50,390 nt of DNA from a virus. Taxonomy: Duplodnaviria > Caudoviricetes. Positions 1 to 50,175 of this stretch are shown piece by piece. The notes beneath the pieces were generated by a model. The model was not told the DNA's origin. It saw only the letters and a program-made list of their open reading frames with translations, and did not search any database. The stretch is taken from the IMG/VR virus record IMGVR_UViG_3300020215_000876, positions 1 through 50,390 of that record. One strand, given 5' to 3'. Positions within the stretch are counted from its first letter, which is position 1. Every line of letters starts with the position of its first letter. Both the position numbers and the translations under genes were made by a program.

Positions 1-594
1 TCAGCCATGACGTTTTACTCCAGCGGTGGCCTCGGCCTCGCTATTCGTGAGCCGTTCGGTGAGTTGCGTCCGCGCGCGATGCAGTCGCGAGCGCACCGTC
101 CCGACCGGTATGTTCAAGATCCGCGACGCATCGTCGTAGGTCAACCCCTGCAAATCACACAAGATCAGCACCTCTCTGTATCTTGACGAGAGCCGGCGGA
201 TGAATCGTCGAACACGTGCGACCGTTTCAGACTGCATCATGGCATTCGACGGGTCATCGATGATCAGATCGCGCTCTCGTGGTTCGTCCAGCGTCACGAA
301 CCGCCGATCCTTGCGAAGATGCCGCCGGCTCAGGTTGCGCGCAATCGCAAACAGGTAAGTGGCCAGCGACCCGCGCTCCGGATCGAAACGCCGCAGCTCA
401 CGCAACAACGCGAGGAACGTTTCCTGCGTGATGTCCTCCGCCGCGGCCACCGAGCCGGTCATGGCGCGCGCGAACCGGAACACCGGCGCGTGGTGTCGCT
501 GATAGATCTCGCGGAACGCGTCCCGCCGGCCGGCAATCGCGTGTCGGACGAGAGCGTCGTCCGCGATTGCCGTGCCATCGATGATGTCCGTCAT
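1..594 (-). CDS. ECF (sigma-70 family) RNA polymerase sigma factor, host gene
   Basis: Region 2 (AEDITQETFL...FDPERGSLATYLFAIARN) and region 4.2 (LTYDDASRILNIPVGTVRSRLHRAR). Start taken at ATG 594; GTG at 642 or 648 is also possible. Confidence 0.92.
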   Translation of the reverse strand: MTDIIDGTAIADDALVRHAIAGRRDAFREIYQRHHAPVFRFARAMTGSVAAAEDITQETFLALLRELRRFDPERGSLATYLFAIARNLSRRHLRKDRRFVTLDEPRERDLIIDDPSNAMMQSETVARVRRFIRRLSSRYREVLILCDLQGLTYDDASRILNIPVGTVRSRLHRARTQLTERLTNSEAEATAGVKRHG

Positions 595-694
595 CGATCG
601 ATCGACGACCAGCGCAAAGTTGCCGGCTTTCCCTGTGGCCACGTGCACAGTTGGACTGCGCCACCGGCGCGTTGGCCGGTGACGCAGACCGTGT

Positions 695-919
695 TCAGCC
701 TTTCTTCCCCTTCGTGCCGCCGCCGTTCGGCTTCTGTCCGCCGCCGCGCAGGCCGGGTGTGCCGTCAGGCTTCTGTCCTTGCGGCGGCTGCGCGCCCGGC
801 TTGACCTTGATCGGCTTGGTCGCTCCTGGCGGCGGCGCCTGCGACCGCGTCTGCGCCAGCACGATACTCGGCATGGCCAGCGCCAGCACACACACGCCGG
901 CAACAAGTGCTCTCTTCAT
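695..919 (-). CDS. Small secreted Pro/Gly/Lys-rich protein, host gene
   Basis: MKRALVAGVCVLALAMPSIVLA-Q is a typical signal peptide followed by a low-complexity mature part. Confidence 0.65.
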   Translation of the reverse strand: MKRALVAGVCVLALAMPSIVLAQTRSQAPPPGATKPIKVKPGAQPPQGQKPDGTPGLRGGGQKPNGGGTKGKKG

Positions 920-1070
920 CACTCGGGTCTCCTCTCGTTGCGCCATCGGCGCCCAATGCGTCGACGTCGCGTTCACTGGGGATTGCCAGCAGCGGCGAGA
1001 GAAGTTCCGTTTTTTTGTGGAGTCGGTGTGCGGCGGGGCAGTTCACGCGGGCGGAGACGCGTAGACCGTA

Positions 1071-1079
1071 TGCTAGAAT
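1071..1079 (+). promoter_or_regulatory. Extended -10 promoter of the tRNA gene
   Basis: TGcTAGAAT about 20 nt upstream of the tRNA 5' end. Confidence 0.6.
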
Positions 1080-1099
1080 CGATTGTTTCCCGCCTCTGT

Positions 1100-1175
1100 G
1101 TCCCCGTCGTCCAGAGGCCTAGGACGTGGCCCTTTCAAGGCTAAAACACGGGTTCGAATCCCGTCGGGGACGCCA
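1100..1175 (+). tRNA. tRNA-Glu (anticodon TTC), prophage attachment site
   Basis: Acceptor stem GTCCCCG/CGGGGAC, D arm GTCC/GGAC, anticodon arm TGGCC-CTTTCAA-GGCTA, T arm GGTTCGAATCC and encoded CCA; 76 nt. Confidence 0.97.
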
Positions 1176-2802
1176 ACGCCTTAGGTGCGAGAGCGTTAAT
1201 CAAAATGCCGCTAGCCGTCAGCGGCAGGCGCACGTCATACGTGCCACGCGCCTCTGGCGTAACAACAATTTTGGCAGACAACACGCCCTCAAGAATCGGC
1301 TTCGCCGCGGTCGGATTCGCGGTGAGCTCGTGCCGCCAATACTGGACTCGTTCGCGCACCAGTCGCTCGATCTCGGCGATGGTCCGATCCGGTGCGGTGG
1401 CGTCCATCAGCCTTGTCAGCGCATCGCGCTGGGACTTGATCGCTTTGAGACGCGTTACCACCGCCGGCAGATCACCCACGCCAGCCACTTGCAGGTCGAC
1501 TAGGCGTGCCGCCTCGATGTCGAGCGCCTTCAGCGTCAGCGCGGCGGTCTCCGTCGCTTGATCGCGCGTGGTGGCGGCCTCGTGCAGCGTTTGCGTGGCG
1601 AGATGGATCGCCATTTCCACGACGGCAGGCGCGAGCAGCCGATCGCGGATCGCGTTCAACACCAGCTCATTTAGTGGCGCCAGCGGCGCCTCGGTGTTAT
1701 TGGTGCACACGCTCTTGCCGCGCGTCATGTAGTTCCAGCAGGCCAAGCCCGGCACGCGACCGCGACCCTTGCGGCTATTTGTGCGCACCACCAGCGACCC
1801 GTGACACTGACCGCACTCGACGAATCCAGTCAGCAAATATTTCGACGGTTTCGCGACGGGGCGACCATGGCGCGCGCCCCCGGTGGCGCCGAGATATGCC
1901 GTCCTCCGGCGCGCGAGGCTGGCATGGGCCGCCTGCCATGCGTCGTCAGACACAATGCGCAGATGATCCGCCGGCTGACGGATCCATTCCGACTCAGCGC
2001 GTTGCCGCTGCCGTTTGCGGCCCCAGTCATCTCGTTTCTTGGATTGATTCCAAACAATGACGCCGCGGTAGAGCTCGCGATACAGAACCTCGCGCACCGT
2101 CGATGGGGTCCAACCTCTAGGACGCCCCAGTTGCGGGCGTGGGGAAGGCGTGAGGGCGTCATTCAATCGGACGGCGATTGCGCGTAGACCGAGACCAGCG
2201 TTCGCAAGTTCGAAGACGCGCCGCACGATCGCGGCCTCCGGCTCGTTGATGCGCCGCTCGACATGCGAGCGCTGCCCTGTGGGCAGCGTAATCGTGATGT
2301 TGTCGTAACCAAAGACGCGGCCGCCGGTCACGTGCCCTGCCTTGGCTTTGCGAGAGAGGGCGTCATAGGTCCGCTGCCTAGCGCGCTCGCGCTCGAGTTC
2401 GTCAGCGAACGCCGCGACGGACATCAAAAGCTTGTCGGTCGGCCCTTGCAGTAACCGCTCGCGGTCTTCGAGATAGAAGAAGACGCGCACGCCGGCGGTG
2501 ACGATCTGCTTCAAGGCATACGCGGTCTCAATGGCTTCACGACCCAGTCGCGATTCCTCGGACATGATCAGCGCATCGAAAAGGGGCCGAGGCGACAGCG
2601 CATTCATCAGCCGGATGAAGCCCGGGCGTTTCGCGAATTCTGCCCCGGATACCTCATCGTGGAACACGCAGTCCTCAACGACGACCCAGCCCTTGCGCGC
2701 AGCGTAGGCACGCGCCTGCTCGATCTGGCGAGTACACGACTTCTGTTCTTCCGCGACGCTCTCCTGCGATGTTGACTTGCGGGCGTAGATGGCAGCACGC
2801 AT
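1141..2802 (-). CDS. int: Large serine recombinase (integrase)
   Basis: YARKS catalytic Ser, SRLGR motif, recombinase domain (FGYD...YRGVIVWN), Zn ribbon (CGQC...C...C) and coiled coil. Confidence 0.95.
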   Translation of the reverse strand: MRAAIYARKSTSQESVAEEQKSCTRQIEQARAYAARKGWVVVEDCVFHDEVSGAEFAKRPGFIRLMNALSPRPLFDALIMSEESRLGREAIETAYALKQIVTAGVRVFFYLEDRERLLQGPTDKLLMSVAAFADELERERARQRTYDALSRKAKAGHVTGGRVFGYDNITITLPTGQRSHVERRINEPEAAIVRRVFELANAGLGLRAIAVRLNDALTPSPRPQLGRPRGWTPSTVREVLYRELYRGVIVWNQSKKRDDWGRKRQRQRAESEWIRQPADHLRIVSDDAWQAAHASLARRRTAYLGATGGARHGRPVAKPSKYLLTGFVECGQCHGSLVVRTNSRKGRGRVPGLACWNYMTRGKSVCTNNTEAPLAPLNELVLNAIRDRLLAPAVVEMAIHLATQTLHEAATTRDQATETAALTLKALDIEAARLVDLQVAGVGDLPAVVTRLKAIKSQRDALTRLMDATAPDRTIAEIERLVRERVQYWRHELTANPTAAKPILEGVLSAKIVVTPEARGTYDVRLPLTASGILINALAPKALASPTGFEPVF

Positions 2803-38116: not shown

Positions 38117-39070
38117 GTGGAATCGATCCACATTGTCACTCCTCCGGCACTGGAACCGCTCACAACGAACGAGGCCAGACGACAACTCCGCATGGGCGCG
38201 TCCAGCGGGGAACCGGCCCCATCGGCCCCGACGGTCGCCTTGGCGAGTCCTGCTGCTGTAGGGAACTGCGACAACGGCGCGCATCGCGTCGGTGTGACCT
38301 TCGTCACGGCCGACGGCGAAACCGAAATCGGCCAGCTTTCGGCGGCAGTCACCGTCGTCGATAAGACCGTTAACGGTCAGATCGCCGTCACCGACATCCC
38401 GACAGGCGGATCCTTTGTGACGTCGCGCCGGTTGTGGATGACGGCCGTCGGCGGGACGGTAGCGAGGCTGGTGGCGACAATCGCGAACAACACGGCCACG
38501 ACGGCGACGATCAGCGTCGCAGACACCAGCCTGGGTGCCGAAGCTCCGACGAGCAATACGACGGCCAACCCCGAACTGAACGCCTGGATCCCTTCAGCCC
38601 GGCAAATCTGCGAAACGTTCGTGCGCCGCAGGTTGATCGACCAGGTGCTGGACTGGAAGCTCGACGGAGACTCCGTTCCCACAGGCACGCAGGTCTTGCG
38701 TCTCCCGTTCGGCAACGTCACGGCGATCGGGTCGATCACTTACGTGGACGCCAACGGAGTGACTCAACCCTGGTCCAGCAGCGAATATCGAACGGACCTG
38801 CCGACGGGTGAGAAGTGCTCACGGGGACGCATTGAACCGGCGTACGGCTACCAGTGGCCGTCCACGCGTGGCGTCATCGCGGCGATGACGATTCGTATGA
38901 CCGCCGGCTACGGAGCGACGCGCGCGAGTGTCCCTGAAGCATTGAAGGTCGGGATGAAGGCGCTCATTAGCCACTGGGATCGCACGCGCGAAGCCGTGAA
39001 CGTCGGAAACATCGTGAACGAAGTGCCGATGGGCGTGAAGTATTCGTGGTCGCCGTTTAGGACCTTCTGA
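38117..39070 (+). CDS. Head-tail connector (gp6-like) with an inserted domain of about 120 aa
   Basis: EPLTTNEARRQLR...AWIPSARQICETFVRRRLI...AGYG...VPEALKVGMKALISHWDRTRE. Confidence 0.88.
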   Translation: MESIHIVTPPALEPLTTNEARRQLRMGASSGEPAPSAPTVALASPAAVGNCDNGAHRVGVTFVTADGETEIGQLSAAVTVVDKTVNGQIAVTDIPTGGSFVTSRRLWMTAVGGTVARLVATIANNTATTATISVADTSLGAEAPTSNTTANPELNAWIPSARQICETFVRRRLIDQVLDWKLDGDSVPTGTQVLRLPFGNVTAIGSITYVDANGVTQPWSSSEYRTDLPTGEKCSRGRIEPAYGYQWPSTRGVIAAMTIRMTAGYGATRASVPEALKVGMKALISHWDRTREAVNVGNIVNEVPMGVKYSWSPFRTF

Positions 39071-40717: not shown

Positions 40718-41455
40718 ATGGCGAGTCTAGTCCTTACGAACGTCAAGACCTACCTGGGCGAGTACGACATCTCCGGTTACTCGAACAGCGTGATGCTCGA
40801 TTACGCCGCGGCCGCGCTGAAAGACACGCGCATGGGCCACGAGACGGAGATCAACAAGGGCGGCGCGAAGTCGGTCAACTTCCAGATCGGTGGTTTCGCC
40901 GATCCGGCGACGGATGGCATGGAGGCGATCGCGTTCAACAAGATCGGCACCGCGAACATCCCGCTGACGTGCTCACCGCATGGTGCGCCGGTAGGCGACG
41001 TCGCGTATTTCTTCAAGGCCTTGAAGGCCAGTATGAAGACCTTCGGCGGGTGGGGCCAACTGATGCCGTTCTCTGGCAACGCCGTCGGCGGCGAACAAGC
41101 GGCGTTGGTGCGCGGCAAGGTCTTCGTGGCGGCGAGTACGCCGAAGACGGCGACCAGCACGAGCGGCGTGATTCAACTCGGCGCCGTGACGGCCGCACAA
41201 CGCGTATACGCCGCACTGCACGTGCTTGATCCCGTGTCCGGCACGACCCCGACGTTGGATGTCACGGTGAAGAGCGACGACGCGTCCGGTTTCGCGTCAC
41301 CAACCACGCGACTGACGTTCGACCAGGCGACCGGCAAGACCAGTCAACTGCTGTCCGCAGCCGGCGCCATCACCGACACGCATTGGCGCGTCGACTACAC
41401 CATCGGCGGGACCGGCCCGTCGTTTCCATTCATTGTCGTCGTCGGCATCGTTTAG
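40718..41455 (+). CDS. Tail-tube-like protein with extra C-terminal beta domain
   Basis: N-terminus paralogous to the next gene. Confidence 0.75.
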   Translation: MASLVLTNVKTYLGEYDISGYSNSVMLDYAAAALKDTRMGHETEINKGGAKSVNFQIGGFADPATDGMEAIAFNKIGTANIPLTCSPHGAPVGDVAYFFKALKASMKTFGGWGQLMPFSGNAVGGEQAALVRGKVFVAASTPKTATSTSGVIQLGAVTAAQRVYAALHVLDPVSGTTPTLDVTVKSDDASGFASPTTRLTFDQATGKTSQLLSAAGAITDTHWRVDYTIGGTGPSFPFIVVVGIV

Positions 41456-42288: not shown

Positions 42289-42509
42289 AACCGGTCGCCT
42301 ACGGACCGCTGGCGCTGTCGCCGGCGGCGATTGATGAGATGACGCCCGGCGAGCTGCTCAAGATGCACGCCGGGTATATGTGGCGGCTGACGAATCCGGC
42401 GCCTGAGGCGGTGTGGCTCGTCACGATGCTGCTGAAGATGTTCGGCGGATCCGAAATGCCGTGGACGCCAGAGACAGTGTTGGGGTTGAAACCGAAGGCG
42501 AATGGCTGA
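42195..42509 (+). CDS. gpT-like extension made by -1 frameshift
   Basis: The -1 frame is open from the slippery site to TGA 42509 (...LSPAAIDEMTPGELL...). Confidence 0.75.
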   Translation, partial: GKSLAGDRERLAWFRQGRLRAFCVSDWFDRVEPVAYGPLALSPAAIDEMTPGELLKMHAGYMWRLTNPAPEAVWLVTMLLKMFGGSEMPWTPETVLGLKPKANG

Positions 42510-43992
42510 ACCGATTGCGGCCTTGATCGTGCGCATTCTCGCGGATACGAGCGAGATGGTTACCGGTGTGAAAAACGTCACCGGTCAGCTCGACTCATTC
42601 GAGAACCGCGTCGCCCAGTTTGGCAAAGCGTTAGCGGGTTACTTCTCCGCTCAGGCGGTAATCGGGTTCGGGAAACAGATCATCGCCGAAATCGATCAGA
42701 TCGACTCCGCATCCAAACGGATCGGCGCCTCGTCTGAAGAGTTCCAGCGCTTCTCATATGCGGTCACGCAATCAAGCGGCGATGCCGCCGGCGCCTTGGC
42801 TGGCATCGTCTCGTTGACCGATCGTCTCGCCCAAGGCGATGCAGGACTACTGGGGGTCCTCAAGAGACTCAATATCAGCTTTGATGAATTCAACGCGCGC
42901 GATCCCATCGCCCGCTACAGGGACCTAGCGCTTGCGATTGCGGCAGTGGAGAGCCCGACGGAACGACTAGAACTCAGGCTCGAGGCGATGGGCGCAAAGG
43001 GCGAAAAGGCGCTGGCTGCGATTGACAGCGGTTTTGACGAGCTGATGACGAACGCGCCGGTCTATACCGACGAAATGATCAAGCAGATCGATCGCGCTGA
43101 CAAAGCGTTCGATCGCGTCCTCCAAAACATGAAAGTGAACCTGGTCAATTCACTGGCGGAGATGAGGGACATCTTTACCGGCAAGAGCATCAGGGACAGT
43201 TTCGACTTCGCTGGAGACGTGCGCAGGGGGAACCCCGGCGATCGTCCACCGATTGGGAAGGATCCGAAGTCCAGCTCCGGGACGCTGGACAAACGATGGG
43301 TCGTCGATGGCCCTCTCGGCCCAGCGATGGACCCGAACGACGCAAACCAGTTGGCGGTGGCACTGGCTCATCTCGAGCTGGAGATGGTGAAGGTAAAAAA
43401 TGCCCAAGACGCTGAGGCCGCGTCGGCGGACAAATTGCGGAAGGCCTCCGAGCAGTTGAGTGCAGAGTTTTATTTAAATCGTGCTGCCGTCGCGGCGCTG
43501 GCGGCAGAGTTCGAGAAGGAATTCCCGAAGGACTCATTCATCGAAGGCCTCGATAGGGCGGCCGCTGATGCAAAGACGCGCATCAGCGAATTGATCGAGG
43601 AAGAAAAGAAGCTGCGCGACATCATCACCCCTGGGTGGAACACCGTCGCCGGTGACGATGTCGACGCTGAGATTTTCAAACTCCGGCAAAACAAGAACAA
43701 CTGGATCAACGGCAACCTAACGCCTGAAGCCCTCGAGGTGGAGCACCGGTTGATCAACAACTTCAACATGCGCTCGCTGGCCAACATGTTGCGGCCAGCC
43801 GCGACGCCGACGATGCCGTCTGCAGGCGCAATGTTTCCAGGCATGGCGACCCCTGGTGGCCCGACGCACATCACCATCAACGCGCAGGGCAGCTGGTGGG
43901 ACAGCCCGGATCGCATGAACCAGATGACGCGCATGATCGAGGATTCGATCGCGCGACGGTCAGGACTCACGAACACGTATTCGAGACGATGA
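42502..43992 (+). CDS. Tape measure protein (short, 496 aa)
   Basis: IAALIVRILADT N-terminus, helical body, ITINAQG C-terminus; gene position. Confidence 0.85.
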   Translation: MAEPIAALIVRILADTSEMVTGVKNVTGQLDSFENRVAQFGKALAGYFSAQAVIGFGKQIIAEIDQIDSASKRIGASSEEFQRFSYAVTQSSGDAAGALAGIVSLTDRLAQGDAGLLGVLKRLNISFDEFNARDPIARYRDLALAIAAVESPTERLELRLEAMGAKGEKALAAIDSGFDELMTNAPVYTDEMIKQIDRADKAFDRVLQNMKVNLVNSLAEMRDIFTGKSIRDSFDFAGDVRRGNPGDRPPIGKDPKSSSGTLDKRWVVDGPLGPAMDPNDANQLAVALAHLELEMVKVKNAQDAEAASADKLRKASEQLSAEFYLNRAAVAALAAEFEKEFPKDSFIEGLDRAAADAKTRISELIEEEKKLRDIITPGWNTVAGDDVDAEIFKLRQNKNNWINGNLTPEALEVEHRLINNFNMRSLANMLRPAATPTMPSAGAMFPGMATPGGPTHITINAQGSWWDSPDRMNQMTRMIEDSIARRSGLTNTYSRR

Positions 43993-44852: not shown

Positions 44853-45707
44853 ATGTTCGACGCCCACAAGAACTTCGCCTATTCGACCGTCGCGACGGCA
44901 CCGACGCCTCCCAACTCGGGCACGTCGCTGGACGTACAGGCTGGGCACGGGACGCGCTTTCCGGCCACACCGTTTAATGCAACGGTATGGCCGGCGAACA
45001 CCATTCCTGATCCCAGCAACGCCGAGATTGTGCGTGTGACAGGGATCACCGCAGACGCGTTCGCGATCGTGCGGCAAACCGAGAGTTCTGGAGCTCGGTC
45101 GATCCAGGTCGGCGATCAGATTGCTGCGTCCATCACGAACAAGGTCATCACGGACATTGAGGCAGGAATTAACTTTCCGAACCTCCAGTCGGCTGGGTAC
45201 GTCAAGGCCGCCGGCGCGATCGGGTTGACCTCAGGTCAGAAGATTTATCTCGACGGCGTGGGGCTGTCTGGCGATACCTATCTTTACGAGAGCGCGGCGA
45301 ACGTATATTCGGTCGTCGTTGGTGGAACTGAGCGCTTCAAGATCGACGGCAATGGCATCGTGCATTTGCTGGGCCGCGAACGCTTGGTGGTGGCGTCTGA
45401 CATCAATCTGAGCGCAGACGCGAACAACTACAACCCCACTGGATTCTCCAACTGTAATTTCTTGCTCGTGACGCCGACCGGCGCCGATCGCAGCATTACC
45501 GGTATGGCGGCGGGTGCGGACGGCGACGTCGTCTATCTGTCGAACCAGTCGACGACACGCAGCTTGACCCTTGTTTACGAGAGCAGCTCGTCGACCAGCG
45601 TCAATCGGTTCACGACGCCAGGCAGCACCAACGCCGTCCTCACTCCATTGAAGACAGCGATGCTCTATTACGGAGCAAACCGGTGGAACGTCGCCGTTTT
45701 CTCATAA
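44853..45707 (+). CDS. Tail fibre/virion structural protein
   Basis: Thr/Gly beta-rich; AEIVRVT and GTERFKIDGNG motifs. Confidence 0.7.
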   Translation: MFDAHKNFAYSTVATAPTPPNSGTSLDVQAGHGTRFPATPFNATVWPANTIPDPSNAEIVRVTGITADAFAIVRQTESSGARSIQVGDQIAASITNKVITDIEAGINFPNLQSAGYVKAAGAIGLTSGQKIYLDGVGLSGDTYLYESAANVYSVVVGGTERFKIDGNGIVHLLGRERLVVASDINLSADANNYNPTGFSNCNFLLVTPTGADRSITGMAAGADGDVVYLSNQSTTRSLTLVYESSSSTSVNRFTTPGSTNAVLTPLKTAMLYYGANRWNVAVFS

Positions 45708-46044: not shown

Positions 46045-49000
46045 ATGTTTGGGCATTACGCACCCGGGCAGGGCTACTTCGGTAAAGGTGGTCAGGACTT
46101 CAATGGGCTCACGAAAAGCCTTACTGGAGCCGTGGCGTCCGCCGGTGCCTTTGCGTCGAGAACGATCGGGCGGATGCTCACGAGCGCCGTGATGCCAACA
46201 AGCACCTGGGTTCGCCAGGTCACGCGCGCGATCGGGAGGTCGCTCGCCTCTGGCATCGGCAATTGCGGTAAGCGCGTCCAACGCGGCTTGGTTGGGACCG
46301 TCACGGCCAGCGGTGTGCTGGATCTGCTGAAAGTCCGACTTGTCGCACTATCCGGATCTGTGGCGTCGGCCGGCGCGCTGGCGCGCGTGTGCTTTCGCCG
46401 ATTAACAGGCGCCGTCAACCCGACGGGGTCGATAACGAGGCGCATCGCCAGACTGCTGGCTGGTCTGCTGACGCCGAACGGGTTCCTTGCACAACGTCAC
46501 CGCGGCGAAACCACCGTCACCGTTGCGCTCGGAGGCACCGATCGGACCAGCAACATTCGGCTCGGTTCGCTGGAGGTGGAAGACGTCCTGAACGACGCGC
46601 CGAACCGATGCACCTTCACGTGTGTCGGCTACATGCCGACGGAAGGCGAGGTGGTGCAGGTGCTTCGCGGTCCAACCGCGGAGCGGGAATTTGCCGGCCA
46701 CGTGATGAGCGTGCAGCAGTTCTATGAGGGCATCCTGGCCAACGTTGCCTACCACGTGACGTGCCAAGACTACACGTGGAAGCTCAATCGGCGTCGGGTG
46801 ACCAAGCGTTGGGTTAATACCAGCGCCAGCACGATAGCCCAACAGATCATCAGTGGATTCACGTCCGGGATCACCTCGAACAACGTCGTGCTCGGACTGG
46901 CGACTGTGCCGGAGTTCCGATGCGATAACGAGTTGCCGAGCCGCGCCTTGCAGCGGCTATGCGCAGAGATCGGCGGCAACTTCTACATCGACTATGCGCT
47001 CGACCTGCACTTTTTCTTAACGGAGACCTCCGAGGCCCCGAACGACATCTCCGACGCGACGTTGGCCACGACCACGGCACGCGGGTTGGCACATACCGGT
47101 GACGTGTCTCAAGTCCGCACACGGATGCGCGGCATCGGCCATGGGACGTCGGCGCTCGAGCACATCTCAAGCACCGATACATCGATCCCAGTTGAGAGCG
47201 CCGAGATGTTCGAGTCGAACGGCGGATCACTGAAGAACACGGAAAACGAGGGCGCCTATACGGGGCGTCACCTCGGCGGCGTCGCGTCGACGGTTCTGGG
47301 CAACGTCGCCGGCCCGGCAAGCGCGCCCTCAGCGAATGTCGCATCGGGCGTGGTCGGCGTGTTGGCCGGAATCTTCAAATACAAAATTGCCTTCGCGAAT
47401 GCGCAGGGCGAAACGACTCCGGGGCCTGAGTCCGGATCTGTGACTGGAACCGCCTTCGCGCCTCCGACGAATGCCAACGTGGCCGCGAGTGGCGCGATCG
47501 GTCCGTTGGTCGGCGCCTATCTCTACGTCACAACGTATGTGACGTCCCTCGGAGAGACGACGGCGGGCGCATCGTTTGGCCGGACGGCGACAGCCGTCGC
47601 CGCGCCAGGTGCGCCGTCTTTAGCCGCCGCCGGCACGATCGGACGACTCATCGGGAACTATGGCTACCGCGTCGCCTTCAAGACGCCGTTCGGTATTACA
47701 GAGGGCGGCAGCATCGCCACGCGCACGGCGTCAGGCACCGCGGCTGGGTCGACGCCGTCCGCATCAGCCATCTCCAACACGCTCGGTAACTTAGTCGGCG
47801 CTTACAGCTACCGGGTCACTTTTGGATCGCCGTTTGGTGAATCGGCACCGACGAGCGCTGGTGGCCGCACCGCCTCGACGCCAGGCGGTCCTGGCGCCCC
47901 AACCTGCACAGCGACGGCCATCGGTCCATTGAAAGGCACCTATCACTACAAAGTAGGTTTCGTCGATGACGAAGGCCGCGAGATTCTCGGCGGGTCTGCG
48001 ACGTCGTACACCCATAACGGTTCGCAAGCGGCGACGCCGAGTGTCGGCAGCACCGGGGGCGCGACAGGACTCAACATTCGCATTCGCGTGTGCTGGATTC
48101 ACCCCATCTATGGTGAATCGAGTTGGTCAGACGCCGCTGAACTGACCAATCACGGAGCGAACGTCAACATTACCGCGAACGCACTGCCGTCCGGTTGCAC
48201 GTGGCAGGTGTTCTCGACTGGCAGCTTCTCGGGCGCATATGCCGGCCAGCCGTACTTTCGAATGCCGACCGTCTACACGGCCAGCAGCGGCGCGTTGGAC
48301 ACGGTCAGCGGTGCCGTTGCGACGTCAGCAGCCGGCACGATGGGCGGCAACTGCTCGATCTCTGGGATCTCGACCGGCCCCAACGGCACGGACTCCCGGC
48401 GCGTGTACAGAACGCGAGTAGGTGCGGGGAGCGGTGGGGCGTATTACCTGGTTGGCCAGATCAACGACAACAGCACAACGACTTTCAACGATGTCGTGCC
48501 AGACCAGGCGTTGCAGTCCGGACCGCTGTACGCGCAACCAGGGGAACAGCACACGGTGACCGTCCCGACTGGGCCGACTGGGACGACGAGGCGCTACGTA
48601 TATAGAACCGAAGCTGGCGGGTCGGCGCACTACCTGTTGCGCACGCTCGAGGACAACGTCACGACCTCGTTTACGGACAACGCGAAGGACGTAGAGCTCG
48701 ACAAGTCCCGCCAGCCCTCCGCTTCGGCGACGTCTGGTGAACAAATCAGCCTGACGAACATTCCGACGGGACCGTCCGGCACCATCAGCCGTTTGATCTA
48801 CCGCACGGAAGCGGGTGGATCTGTTTACAGGTTGCTGATCGAAATCGCGGACAACAGTACGACGTCGTATACCGACAACAAGGCGGACACCGAGCTCGGC
48901 GCAGAGACAGCCCGGGGCACGTCCACCGCCGGCGGTCAGGCGCACAGCCTCACCTCGATTCCCGTCGGGCCTACTGGCACGCTGGCTCGTCGTATCTACA

Positions 49001-50175
49001 GGACGGTCGCTGGCGGCACCTCGTATCAGTTTGTTGGCGAGCTGACGGACAACGTCTCGACCACCTTTACCGACGCGGTGGCGGATTCCGCATTGGGCCA
49101 CTACATCCCACTGACCAATACCGCCGGCGCGAACAAGATCGCGTTGACGTCGATTCCGACCGGTGGTGCGGGCGTCACGAAGCGGATCATCTATCGCACT
49201 GAGGCCGGTGGGAGCGTCTTCCGATACGTCGCCACGCTCGATGACAACAGCGCGACGACGTACACGGACAACACGCCCGACACGAGCCTCGGGCGAGAGG
49301 CGCTGACGCAGAGCACGATCGGTGCGATCACCGGAGACACGAGTCTCTTGCTGAGCAGCGTCACCGGCTGGCCGACGGTCGGGTGGTTGAAGGCCGGCAG
49401 CTTATTAGTTCGGTGGAACGGCATCAGTGGCACCACGCTGACCGGTATCCCTGGCGGCCAGGACTCAACGATCACCCGTAGCGGAACGACCGCGACGGTG
49501 ACCACGACGGGCAGCCACGGTTTCGCCACGAACGACGTGGTCACAATCCAAGGCGCAGAACAGTCCGAATATAACGGCTCGCACAAGATCACGGTGACTG
49601 GCTCGACGACGTTCACCTACACGATCGCAGGGTCACCGGCCACGCCCGCGACGGGGACCATTAAGGTCTACGCCGTTGGAGCCATTCTGGCGCCCATCCA
49701 AGGCGGCTCTGGTGTTGTCACGGCGCCGTTCCTGTCGGGTGTTTCGGGTCTGACCTATCCCGTCGACAAAGGCGGGCCGGTGCGCATCATGGTCGTCCGC
49801 AACGATTCGGCCGCGCAGGCCGCGCTGGCGGCTGTCGAAGGCGGCGACGGCGTGCACGAAGAACTCCTTGACGAACCGTCGATCGAAACTGTCGCGCAGC
49901 TGACGGCCGCCTGCGACGCGGAACTGGCGGCGTACAGCAGGAAACTTCGGACGATTACGTTCCGCTCGAGAGATCCAAAACTTCGCAGTGGAAAGACGGT
50001 GACGTTGAATCTTGGTGCCCCGACGAACATTTCAGGATCGTTCCTGATTCAGCGCGTGATCAGCACCGAGTTTGATACCGCGCCGTATCTCAATCCGATG
50101 CGCGAAGTGATTGCGGCGCCGGTACGCCTCTCATTCGAAACGGTATTGCGCCGATCGCGCGAGTCGGTGATGTAG
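46045..50175 (+). CDS. Large tail tip/hub protein with nested split beta-domain repeats
   Basis: Hub-like segment (CQDYTWKL...FYIDYALDLHFF) and C-terminal LRSGKTVTL, with six A-type and six B-type half-repeats between them. Confidence 0.85.
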   Translation: MFGHYAPGQGYFGKGGQDFNGLTKSLTGAVASAGAFASRTIGRMLTSAVMPTSTWVRQVTRAIGRSLASGIGNCGKRVQRGLVGTVTASGVLDLLKVRLVALSGSVASAGALARVCFRRLTGAVNPTGSITRRIARLLAGLLTPNGFLAQRHRGETTVTVALGGTDRTSNIRLGSLEVEDVLNDAPNRCTFTCVGYMPTEGEVVQVLRGPTAEREFAGHVMSVQQFYEGILANVAYHVTCQDYTWKLNRRRVTKRWVNTSASTIAQQIISGFTSGITSNNVVLGLATVPEFRCDNELPSRALQRLCAEIGGNFYIDYALDLHFFLTETSEAPNDISDATLATTTARGLAHTGDVSQVRTRMRGIGHGTSALEHISSTDTSIPVESAEMFESNGGSLKNTENEGAYTGRHLGGVASTVLGNVAGPASAPSANVASGVVGVLAGIFKYKIAFANAQGETTPGPESGSVTGTAFAPPTNANVAASGAIGPLVGAYLYVTTYVTSLGETTAGASFGRTATAVAAPGAPSLAAAGTIGRLIGNYGYRVAFKTPFGITEGGSIATRTASGTAAGSTPSASAISNTLGNLVGAYSYRVTFGSPFGESAPTSAGGRTASTPGGPGAPTCTATAIGPLKGTYHYKVGFVDDEGREILGGSATSYTHNGSQAATPSVGSTGGATGLNIRIRVCWIHPIYGESSWSDAAELTNHGANVNITANALPSGCTWQVFSTGSFSGAYAGQPYFRMPTVYTASSGALDTVSGAVATSAAGTMGGNCSISGISTGPNGTDSRRVYRTRVGAGSGGAYYLVGQINDNSTTTFNDVVPDQALQSGPLYAQPGEQHTVTVPTGPTGTTRRYVYRTEAGGSAHYLLRTLEDNVTTSFTDNAKDVELDKSRQPSASATSGEQISLTNIPTGPSGTISRLIYRTEAGGSVYRLLIEIADNSTTSYTDNKADTELGAETARGTSTAGGQAHSLTSIPVGPTGTLARRIYRTVAGGTSYQFVGELTDNVSTTFTDAVADSALGHYIPLTNTAGANKIALTSIPTGGAGVTKRIIYRTEAGGSVFRYVATLDDNSATTYTDNTPDTSLGREALTQSTIGAITGDTSLLLSSVTGWPTVGWLKAGSLLVRWNGISGTTLTGIPGGQDSTITRSGTTATVTTTGSHGFATNDVVTIQGAEQSEYNGSHKITVTGSTTFTYTIAGSPATPATGTIKVYAVGAILAPIQGGSGVVTAPFLSGVSGLTYPVDKGGPVRIMVVRNDSAAQAALAAVEGGDGVHEELLDEPSIETVAQLTAACDAELAAYSRKLRTITFRSRDPKLRSGKTVTLNLGAPTNISGSFLIQRVISTEFDTAPYLNPMREVIAAPVRLSFETVLRRSRESVM

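Follow-up and report, generated by a model that had tools for sequence, protein, structure and literature searches.

How does a polypeptide fold when the N-terminal halves of a repeated domain all come before its C-terminal halves? The question is raised by the last long gene in a 50,390-nucleotide stretch of viral DNA (IMG/VR virus record IMGVR_UViG_3300020215_000876, Duplodnaviria; Caudoviricetes), which is analyzed here over its full length and referred to as the window. This gene is the only long open reading frame (ORF) in its region, occupies positions 46045-50175 of the + strand, and encodes a protein of 1376 residues that we named P0001. A preliminary description, made without database searches, had noted six A half-repeats in this protein followed by one divergent and five clear B half-repeats and had proposed that each copy of the domain sits in the A/B loop of the copy before it. 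We conclude, with a probability of about 0.85, that P0001 contains a six-level homotypic nest, its halves paired in mirror order, within a split tail hub.

The A/B repeat pattern in P0001 is far beyond chance. The A motif (YxYxVxFxxxxGE[ST]) occurs six times, at residues 444, 492, 539, 587, 633, and 678, giving spacings of 48, 47, 48, 46, and 45 residues, and the YRT triplet of the B motif (RxIYRTxxGGxxYxL...DNxTTxFxD) occurs five times, at nucleotides 48406, 48601, 48799, 48997, and 49192 (residues 788, 853, 919, 985, and 1050; spacings of 65, 66, 66, and 65 residues). All 11 units lie at the nucleotides at which they had originally been reported. Profile hidden Markov models (HMMs) built from the units recovered six copies of A (domain E values of 1e-14 to 5e-17) and five of B (6e-27 to 3e-31) in P0001. 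The divergent B that had been postulated after A6 (residues about 697-766) was not detected by the B profile, yet in the AlphaFold model of P0001 it completes A6, the two together forming one contiguous beta-sandwich. When the whole window was scanned in six frames with the same HMMs, the sole other clear match was a B unit (E 1.3e-14) in the ORF at 38117-39070, in which the A profile gave weak matches (independent E values of 0.18 and 0.63).

This second ORF encodes a head-tail adaptor of 317 residues, P0002 (phrog_442, E 4e-15), in which iterated profiles placed an A unit at residue 46 and a B unit 43 residues further on, at residue 89. The two units lie in an insert (residues about 31-150) that is as long as one A period and one B period together, as the preliminary description had noted for the head-tail connector. 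When 1.84 billion cluster representatives were searched with P0002, 12,776 proteins matched at E <= 0.001, many of them over query residues about 31-150 only, once or repeatedly. The gap from A to B in these proteins is about 40 residues, and the domain is present either once or in tandem, in ABABAB arrays (P0051, P0069, and P0152). A followed directly by B is a single unit of about 118 residues in thousands of proteins, the adaptor included. The contiguous unit of P0051 matches residues 106-224 of 8jov_A, a virion protein of Ralstonia phage GP4, by sequence (E 0.0014), so a solved copy of the unsplit A+B domain probably exists. Among the best 150 matches to the adaptor, homologs of about 190-200 residues without the insert and homologs of about 310-330 residues with it are both present, and the phrog_442 profile itself already reaches into the B half.

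If A and B are the halves of one domain, the order in which they pair in P0001 becomes the central issue, and AlphaFold modeling of nested contacts had been put forward as a check. We made two AlphaFold2 models, one of residues 415-1102 (model 1; 19 same-architecture homologs) and one of residues 170-1369 (model 2). Model 1 was all-beta, with a mean predicted local distance difference test score (pLDDT) of 88.9; the mean pLDDT of model 2 was 85.1. Both models are of monomers and were made from about 20 sequences, with predicted template modeling scores (pTM) of 0.58 and 0.39, which leave the inter-domain geometry uncertain. In the numbering of model 1, the A units start near 20, 68, 115, 163, and 209; the ends of the B units fall near 408, 474, 538, 604, and 669. 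We aligned this model structurally with 48,161 PDB representatives. Among the 50 matches listed, 29 lay inside the innermost domain (245-351) and 21 spanned more than 150 residues of the model, the solved partners in these wide-span matches being single domains of 90-120 residues. All 21 started just before a unit Ai and ended at the end of B(6-i), and none joined Ai to Bi. The wide-span matches numbered 2, 4, 1, 5, and 9 at successive levels, outermost first, and the ranges 1..679, 56..614, 104..537, 150..483, and 198..418 each enclose the next. The models thus link each A to its mirror partner and not to the B that a parallel order would assign to it.

The innermost levels gave the strongest individual alignments. 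VIA aligned the innermost domain, over about 246..351, with 9vel_C (Z 7.7) and with 7qok_A of crAss001 (Z 7.3). For the pair A5+B1, a contiguous 117-residue domain of the SPO1 capsid protein (9vel_A, 285-401), present among the top 1000 chains from Foldseek, aligned over 100 residues with range 201..411 (Z 9.2; root mean square deviation [rmsd], 2.5 Å), a range with only about 105 residues left once the enclosed tip domain is subtracted. The same pair was matched by alpha-latrotoxin 355-459 (94 residues, Z 7.8) and by crAss001 7qol_P 168-291 (106 residues, Z 7.0), and model 2 repeated the pair as range 445..656. With one exception, a multi-domain match, the alignments from those top 1000 chains obeyed the mirror order too, and they added matches at the A4+B2 level. 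Over the SPO1, crAss001, and alpha-latrotoxin matches, Z was 7.0-9.2, with 91-106 aligned residues, rmsd values of 2.5-3.5 Å, and 12-17% sequence identity; a Z below about 8 may mean a common sandwich arrangement only. The crAss001 domain (7qok/7qol, about 164-291) fits both the tip alone and the split A5+B1, and the A and B profiles match every level, from which it follows that guest and host belong to the same family.

If halves are nested, relatives should gain and lose A and B units together, a prediction that the preliminary description had made. A word-index search with residues 420-1100 yielded 67 homologs of 765-1928 residues, in which units were called with iterated A and B profiles and with a profile of the tip domain (T), the short A profile being the less sensitive. 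Written as words, 53 of the 67 homologs are balanced, most of them as A^nTB^n or A^nB^n, n ranging from 1 to 6. IMG/VR, scanned independently, supplied more than 454 relatives; 79 loci were kept, with 81 hub-bearing ORFs, 71 of which have both ends of the hub. In these 71 hubs, the numbers of A and B units are strongly correlated (Pearson r 0.94) over depths of 0-7: 41 hubs show strict balance, and the two counts differ by one in 28 and by two in 2, most of the imbalances reflecting one weak A that was missed at the expected spacing. Every unit in all 71 hubs sits between the N- and C-terminal parts of the hub. The halves are therefore gained and lost together in both sets, as predicted.

Nesting makes a further prediction, namely, that mixed words should obey a balanced-bracket grammar, which would be hard to obtain from two independent arrays. 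Words of this kind were found. AABABABB (P0080 and P0181) and AAAABBBABB (P0134) are balanced brackets that describe tandem whole domains inside a split one, and L080 and P0136 can be read in the same way if one A was missed in each. Purely tandem ABAB... arrays exist in other proteins. The deepest words are those of P0128 (1362 residues, A7B7), P0121 (1502 residues, A6B6), and P0082 (1593 residues, AAAAAAABBBBBABBBB), reaching seven or more levels. Combinations of nested and tandem forms recur: in L080 131-4822, L048 2086-7005, P0080, P0181, P0134, and P0136, which are hubs and other proteins, one or two split domains enclose several whole A+B domains in tandem, for example, n-AABABABABABABBB-c. 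At two loci, the hub is present as two overlapping ORFs with the break within the B array (L046, 2335-5166 and 4830-5975, nAABAB + BBc; L057, 2872-4680 and 4313-5623, nAAB + BBc); the break may reflect a frameshift or a sequencing error, or the hub may truly be split.

The order of pairing also left a trace in rates of change. For a covariation test, we took per-unit identities between homologs with the same n, removed the pair and unit means (double-centring), and ranked A-to-B assignments by mean correlation. The mirror assignment ranked first of 120 for n = 5 (20 proteins), first of 24 for n = 4 (13 proteins), and first of 6 for n = 3, against ranks of 98, 23, and 5, respectively, for the parallel assignment. 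The order of conservation among the A units (A2>A1>A3>A4>A5) mirrors that among the B units (B4>B5>B3>B2>B1), and when proteins with n = 5 were compared with those with n = 4, the commonest inferred missing pair was (A5, B1), which adjoins the tip. Such tests of order, made on sequences alone, support the models and do not replace them. Mirror pairs at all six levels, the innermost included, together with coupled counts, bracket words, and rate covariation, uphold the nested order that had been proposed, which in our numbering is A1(A2(A3(A4(A5(tip)B1)B2)B3)B4)B5.

The protein that carries the nest is, by its predicted fold, a tail hub of the gp27 / P2 gpD / Mu gp44 type. VIA aligned model 2 with about 15 solved baseplate or tail-tip hubs at Z 15-19, with about 280-300 aligned residues across model positions 1..~1197. 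These hubs included Mu gp44 (1wru_A; Z 16.7, 289 of 325 residues aligned) and those of MuSo2 (3cdd_A, Z 17.3), 9g8s_q (Z 18.3), HFTV1 (9h4p_BD, Z 18.8), and 80alpha (6v8i_AE, Z 15.5). Foldseek likewise matched model 2 with hubs at E 1e-7 to 1e-6 (1wru, probability 1.00, E 9e-7). Since the approximately 290 hub-aligned residues are spread over positions 1..~1197, the hub fold must be split by an insert of about 800 residues. The Pfam profile PF05954 (Phage_GPD) aligned with residues 211-362 of P0001 (profile positions 40-194 of 305; E 3.3e-6) with a score of 27.0 bits, below the curated cut-off of 30.1 bits, so that the sequence profile does not by itself place P0001 in the family; the precomputed annotation of its protein cluster includes PF05954.18.

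Homologs that carry no insert show where the hub was opened. In P0223 (454 residues), blastp aligned residues 157-407 of P0001 with 34-288 and residues 1230-1338 with 298-413, so that the two hub segments are 10 residues apart, and P0223 has no A or B unit. Four of the 71 IMG/VR hubs (L065 and L075-L077; 453-538 residues) also lack any unit. The nest had been described as looped out of the hub, and this holds on both counts: solved hub folds align on either side of it, and insert-free homologs join the two hub halves directly. The position of the gene, downstream of the tape measure gene, is also that of a hub gene. Upstream lie genes for head-closure and neck proteins, a major tail protein (40718-41452), and the tape measure protein (42502-43989), and the interval from the tape measure gene to the hub gene holds three small genes, including one for a tail-fiber-like N terminus (about 44853-45707; phrog_8469). 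The tape measure protein has just 496 residues, which suggests a rather short, noncontractile tail.

We propose an architecture in which P0001 would serve as the hub at the tail tip of a phage or prophage with a long tail and its chain would leave the hub fold at about residue 420 and return at about residue 1100. The excursion would use one beta-sandwich of about 110 residues six times, each copy inside the A/B loop of the previous one. On the way out, the chain would contribute the N-terminal halves of five copies (A1-A5), each comprising a beta-hairpin and one strand; the whole divergent domain (A6 and the divergent B) would then fold at the tip, and the returning chain would supply five four-strand C-terminal halves in mirror order, from B1 closing A5 to B5 closing A1. 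Both chain ends would be anchored in the hub, with the variable domain distal. If the hub is a trimer, as the solved hubs suggest, three stalks would project from each tail tip, and if each layer adds a few nanometers, as the size of the domain suggests, six layers would make a stalk of roughly 20 nm. The stalk may present its variable tip as an adhesin or host-recognition module, and its reach would then depend on how deep the nesting goes (0 to about 7 layers in relatives). Growth would occur mostly beside the tip, through insertion of a whole-domain copy or through exchange of an inner block. At the DNA level, the repeats within the gene are short, with identities of 70-85% at best, which implies that the layers are old, and because the DNA retains no trace of recent duplication, homologous unequal crossing-over between present-day units seems unlikely.

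A divergent domain had been placed at the tip, and the center of the nest is indeed its least conserved part. Over 20 same-architecture homologs, the mean identity of the tip (residues 660-766) was 31.5%, compared with 45-51% for the parts of the hub, 47% for the A block, and 55% for the B block. P0005 and P0008 share 71-76% of the hub with P0001 and just 29-30% of the tip. P0006 presents the reverse pattern, with a tip 64% identical, a stalk 54-62% identical, and a hub only 26-34% identical to those of P0001. These identities imply that the nested cassette is exchanged between hubs and that its center evolves fastest; in the case of P0006, the whole cassette seems to have moved between unrelated hubs. 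A fast-evolving, exchanged module is the usual signature of a specificity determinant. On balance, we think the odds are about even that the stalk is a reach-adjustable device for adhesion or host recognition, and we give slightly better than even odds to the fuller proposal of a hitherto undescribed kind of tail appendage: a single-chain, out-and-back stalk, formed by recursive self-insertion in a hub loop, whose depth (0 to at least 7 layers in natural relatives) would set, in an evolvable way, the length of the support for a hypervariable adhesin at its tip and whose cassette would be exchangeable.

Several observations weigh against the nest or against its proposed role. The pairing was deduced from where structural alignments begin and end, and most of the FN3 matches to the nested levels have low Z (3.1-4.8, over 60-80 aligned residues), with level 3 represented by one match alone; one match among the top 1000 (151..332, rmsd 18.9 Å), a poor multi-domain alignment, fits no pair. 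Pfam fn3 did not match the tandem arrays of P0051, P0069, P0122, and P0152 at E values up to 10. The mirror assignment ranked 131st of 720 for n = 6, with four proteins only, too few to be informative. Mapping of insertions and deletions was noisy (101 of 260 comparisons were consistent with the mirror order, 44 with the parallel order, and 27 with both), congruence of within-protein similarity favored the mirror order weakly (r 0.26 versus 0.11; 35 of 63 proteins), and the mirror covariation of rates could have arisen without physical pairing, through exchange of contiguous DNA blocks centered on the tip. Under strict thresholds, the counts of A and B are unequal in 14 of the 67 homologs and in 30 of the 71 IMG/VR hubs; 8 of the 14 are accounted for by a false T hit or by an A that lies where the spacing predicts but scores below threshold, and six homologs stay unbalanced (P0044, P0046, P0047, P0053, P0061, and P0062), five of them with fewer A than B units. 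These unequal counts, and the fact that A and B each run head to tail with a regular period, would suit two independent tandem arrays, in which the A hairpins would form a beta structure of their own, the B units would be separate small domains, and the similar numbers would be coincidental or length-matched. We regard this as very improbable. Contiguous A+B is a single unit in thousands of proteins and matches the solved 8jov_A; and the correlation over depths of 0-7, the bracket words, the pairing of A with B in the models, and the fact that most imbalances are a sub-threshold A all speak against independent arrays.

The other two alternatives accept the nested topology. Each Ai might complete a B of a neighboring chain in a trimer, a three-dimensional domain swap that would make one intertwined fiber of three chains. 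Solved hubs of this fold are trimers, and our models, being of monomers and having the modest pTM values given above, are compatible with pairing of halves between chains. The coupled numbers of A and B are expected under either reading. A swap nevertheless seems improbable to us, because, in the monomer models, a single chain completes every domain at high pLDDT, and because no second chain is needed for the innermost domain or for the contiguous copies in other proteins. A more serious rival concerns function: the nested stalk may be a generic Ig-like decoration or spacer, serving in weak, nonspecific adhesion to surface glycans or as a strut at the tail tip, while the product of the neighboring fiber-like gene (about 44853-45707) would determine host specificity. 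Ig-like accessory domains are common on phages. The A+B domain also occurs in the head-tail adaptor, far from the tip, and so is not specific to receptor-binding positions; tandem arrays of it occur in many virion-type proteins; and a tail-fiber-like protein is encoded just upstream of the hub. These points are countered, indirectly, by the tip, which is the fastest-evolving part of P0001 and appears to have been exchanged between hubs along with the stalk. We hold generic decoration to be possible and rather less probable than the out-and-back stalk with a variable adhesin at its tip. Table 1 lists the features of P0001 and the A+B domain of the adaptor.

Table 1. Positions in the window of the nest, the hub, and related features (model ranges are in model 1 numbering)
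Feature	Nucleotides	Residues	Strand	Evidence and pairing
N-terminal extension with short repeats of its own, outside the nest	46114..46494	about 24-150	+	blastp
Hub, N-terminal part	46534..47301	about 164-419	+	Phage_GPD, VIA, P0223 alignment
A1 half-domain	47332..47439	430-465	+	HMM; pairs with B5; FN3 chains on model 1..679, 6..679
A2	47476..47583	478-513	+	HMM; pairs with B4; model 56..614, 56..613, 56..607, 63..604, 56..601
A3	47620..47724	526-560	+	HMM; pairs with B3; model 104..537, single match
A4	47761..47868	573-608	+	HMM; pairs with B2; model from 146-167 to 468-483
A5	47899..48006	619-654	+	HMM; pairs with B1; model from 197-208 to 394-418
Innermost (tip) domain, A6 and divergent B	48025..48339	661-765	+	T profile 661-765; A6 HMM 664-699
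B1	48346..48516	768-824	+	HMM, structural alignments; closes A5
B2	48541..48708	833-888	+	HMM, structural alignments; closes A4
B3	48739..48906	899-954	+	HMM, structural alignments; closes A3
B4	48937..49104	965-1020	+	HMM, structural alignments; closes A2
B5	49132..49299	1030-1085	+	HMM, structural alignments; closes A1
Small E1-FCCH-like beta-barrel after the nest	49450..49677	about 1136-1211	+	phrog_9998, Pfam, VIA
Hub, C-terminal part	49717..50151	about 1225-1369	+	P0223 alignment; hub folds align to model 2 position ~1197
Contiguous single A+B domain in head-tail adaptor P0002	38207..38566	about 31-150	+	HMM, homolog search

Two further parts of P0001 lie outside the nest. The N-terminal extension carries repeats rich in G, A, S, T, V, L, and R, which, by blastp, recur several times in the otherwise different proteins P0224, P0226-P0228, and P0230. 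In the same-architecture homologs P0015, P0020, and P0022, the repeat units begin about 130-146 residues earlier than in P0001, which suggests that the extension is absent there. The small beta-barrel that follows the nest matches phrog_9998 (E 3.2e-14) and Pfam E1_FCCH (E 0.0034), aligns in VIA with residues 256-338 of the phi92 endosialidase (Z 9.6) and with UBA1 (Z 9.3), and is 57% identical to a module in a "tail assembly protein" of Pseudomonas phage 8P. Alignment ranges of 205..1042 and 196..1080 hint that this barrel or a neighboring small domain may borrow a strand from before the nest.

Searches for named relatives of the A+B domain were largely negative. No Pfam family matched the A or B units, a look-up of the domain in the ESM Atlas gave no named family, and phmmer searches of PDB sequences with P0001 gave nothing meaningful (best E 0.04). 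Pfam fn3 (PF00041) had no match on the A/B units of P0001 at E values up to 1, and the fn3 matches in P0026 and P0061 are confined to their N termini, outside the A/B units. To judge from its motifs, A+B may be a circularly permuted FN3 domain; in natural tandem arrays, fn3 matched neither the B-to-A junctions nor any other part of the units. When the 688-residue insert was compared with the PDB by Foldseek, whole-chain matches were weak, the top one being GhpA of Aureispira (E 1.7e-4; template modeling score, 0.1). We rejected this grappling-hook protein as a relative, since it reads as a linear array of successive Ig-like domains in parallel strands, and the preprint that describes it does not use the word "nested." Among viral predicted structures, Foldseek found two uncharacterized proteins of uncultured phages (E 1e-17 and 3e-11) and nothing named. 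Among 50,697 phage records, tblastn found no isolated phage carrying the nested insert; its only matches were to the hub part, at 26% identity, in Thermoanaerobacterium phage THSA-485A and to the FCCH-like barrel in Pseudomonas phage 8P. A scan of genome contigs gave just two partial B-type matches, both in metagenome-assembled genomes.

Protein repeats normally expand by tandem duplication, and a chain that grows by recursion is accordingly rare. A series of depths, mixed nested and tandem forms, and a hypervariable tip together make the relatives of P0001 an unusually clean natural system in which to study how nesting originates, how it folds, and how its depth is controlled. Folding itself is a puzzle, as the first half-domain must wait for the last. 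For phage biology, the arrangement suggests a compact design in which one gene and one chain hold a variable adhesin away from the tail tip by a distance that can be adjusted. For annotation, it exposes a domain of about 110 residues that has no Pfam model, occurs in thousands of protein clusters, and is easily mistaken for two unrelated repeat families, and it gives protein design a natural scaffold whose own loop can accept many insertions.

P0001 shares its hub fold, and the place of its gene after the tape measure gene, with the gp27 / P2 gpD / Mu gp44 hubs and with siphophage Tal proteins. Hub and distal tail proteins of other phages carry inserted binding modules, and to our knowledge, the hub inserts described so far are single or side-by-side modules, with no homotypic six-deep nest among them. 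Full-text searches of a collection of open-access papers yielded no description of nested FN3, Ig-like, or beta-sandwich insertions in a phage tail protein, in keeping with the initial remark that none was known. The best structural matches to A5+B1 and to the tip, the domains of the SPO1 capsid (9vel 285-401), the crAss001 muzzle (7qok/7qol, about 164-291), and alpha-latrotoxin (9go9/9goa, about 355-459), are uninterrupted, unlike the split domains of P0001, and the domain of 8jov_A in Ralstonia phage GP4, a weak match to A+B, is single and un-nested. The FN3 and Ig-like domains of virions are comparable in part: many FN3 chains align to each nested level, the A and B motifs look FN3-like by eye, and the A+B domain lies at the surface and turns up in a wide variety of virion proteins. 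The A+B domain differs from them in the absence of a Pfam fn3 match and in the low Z, and its motifs suggest a hairpin-first strand order unlike that of canonical FN3.

The precedent lies outside phages, in the Si3 insertion of cyanobacterial RNA polymerase, a six-level recursive insertion that serves as an example of complex nesting in a survey of 2.7 million ECOD domains (PMC13114784); the word "phage" does not appear in that survey. The nest described here, with 6-7 levels and perhaps more in P0082 and P0128, possibly equals or exceeds the deepest nesting reported in the same survey (PMC13114784). Si3 resembles P0001 in that one small beta domain was repeatedly inserted into itself in a loop of a host protein (the trigger loop of beta'), with several copies assembled from distant segments into an elongated appendage; the repeated domain of Si3 is the sandwich-barrel hybrid motif (SBHM), and in a crystal structure, SBHM-2 to -5 are discontinuous (PMC10895346). 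It differs in fold, host protein, and biology, and it combines nested with side-by-side copies in an arrangement that is fixed within cyanobacteria. Si3 is the only well-documented deep recursive case that we found, and set against its fixed arrangement, the hubs described here offer a series of 0 to about 7 layers in a fast-evolving part of a virus. The words of these hubs are almost purely A^n(T)B^n, with a depth that varies from 0 to about 7 among close relatives, and the nest ends in a hypervariable tip domain.

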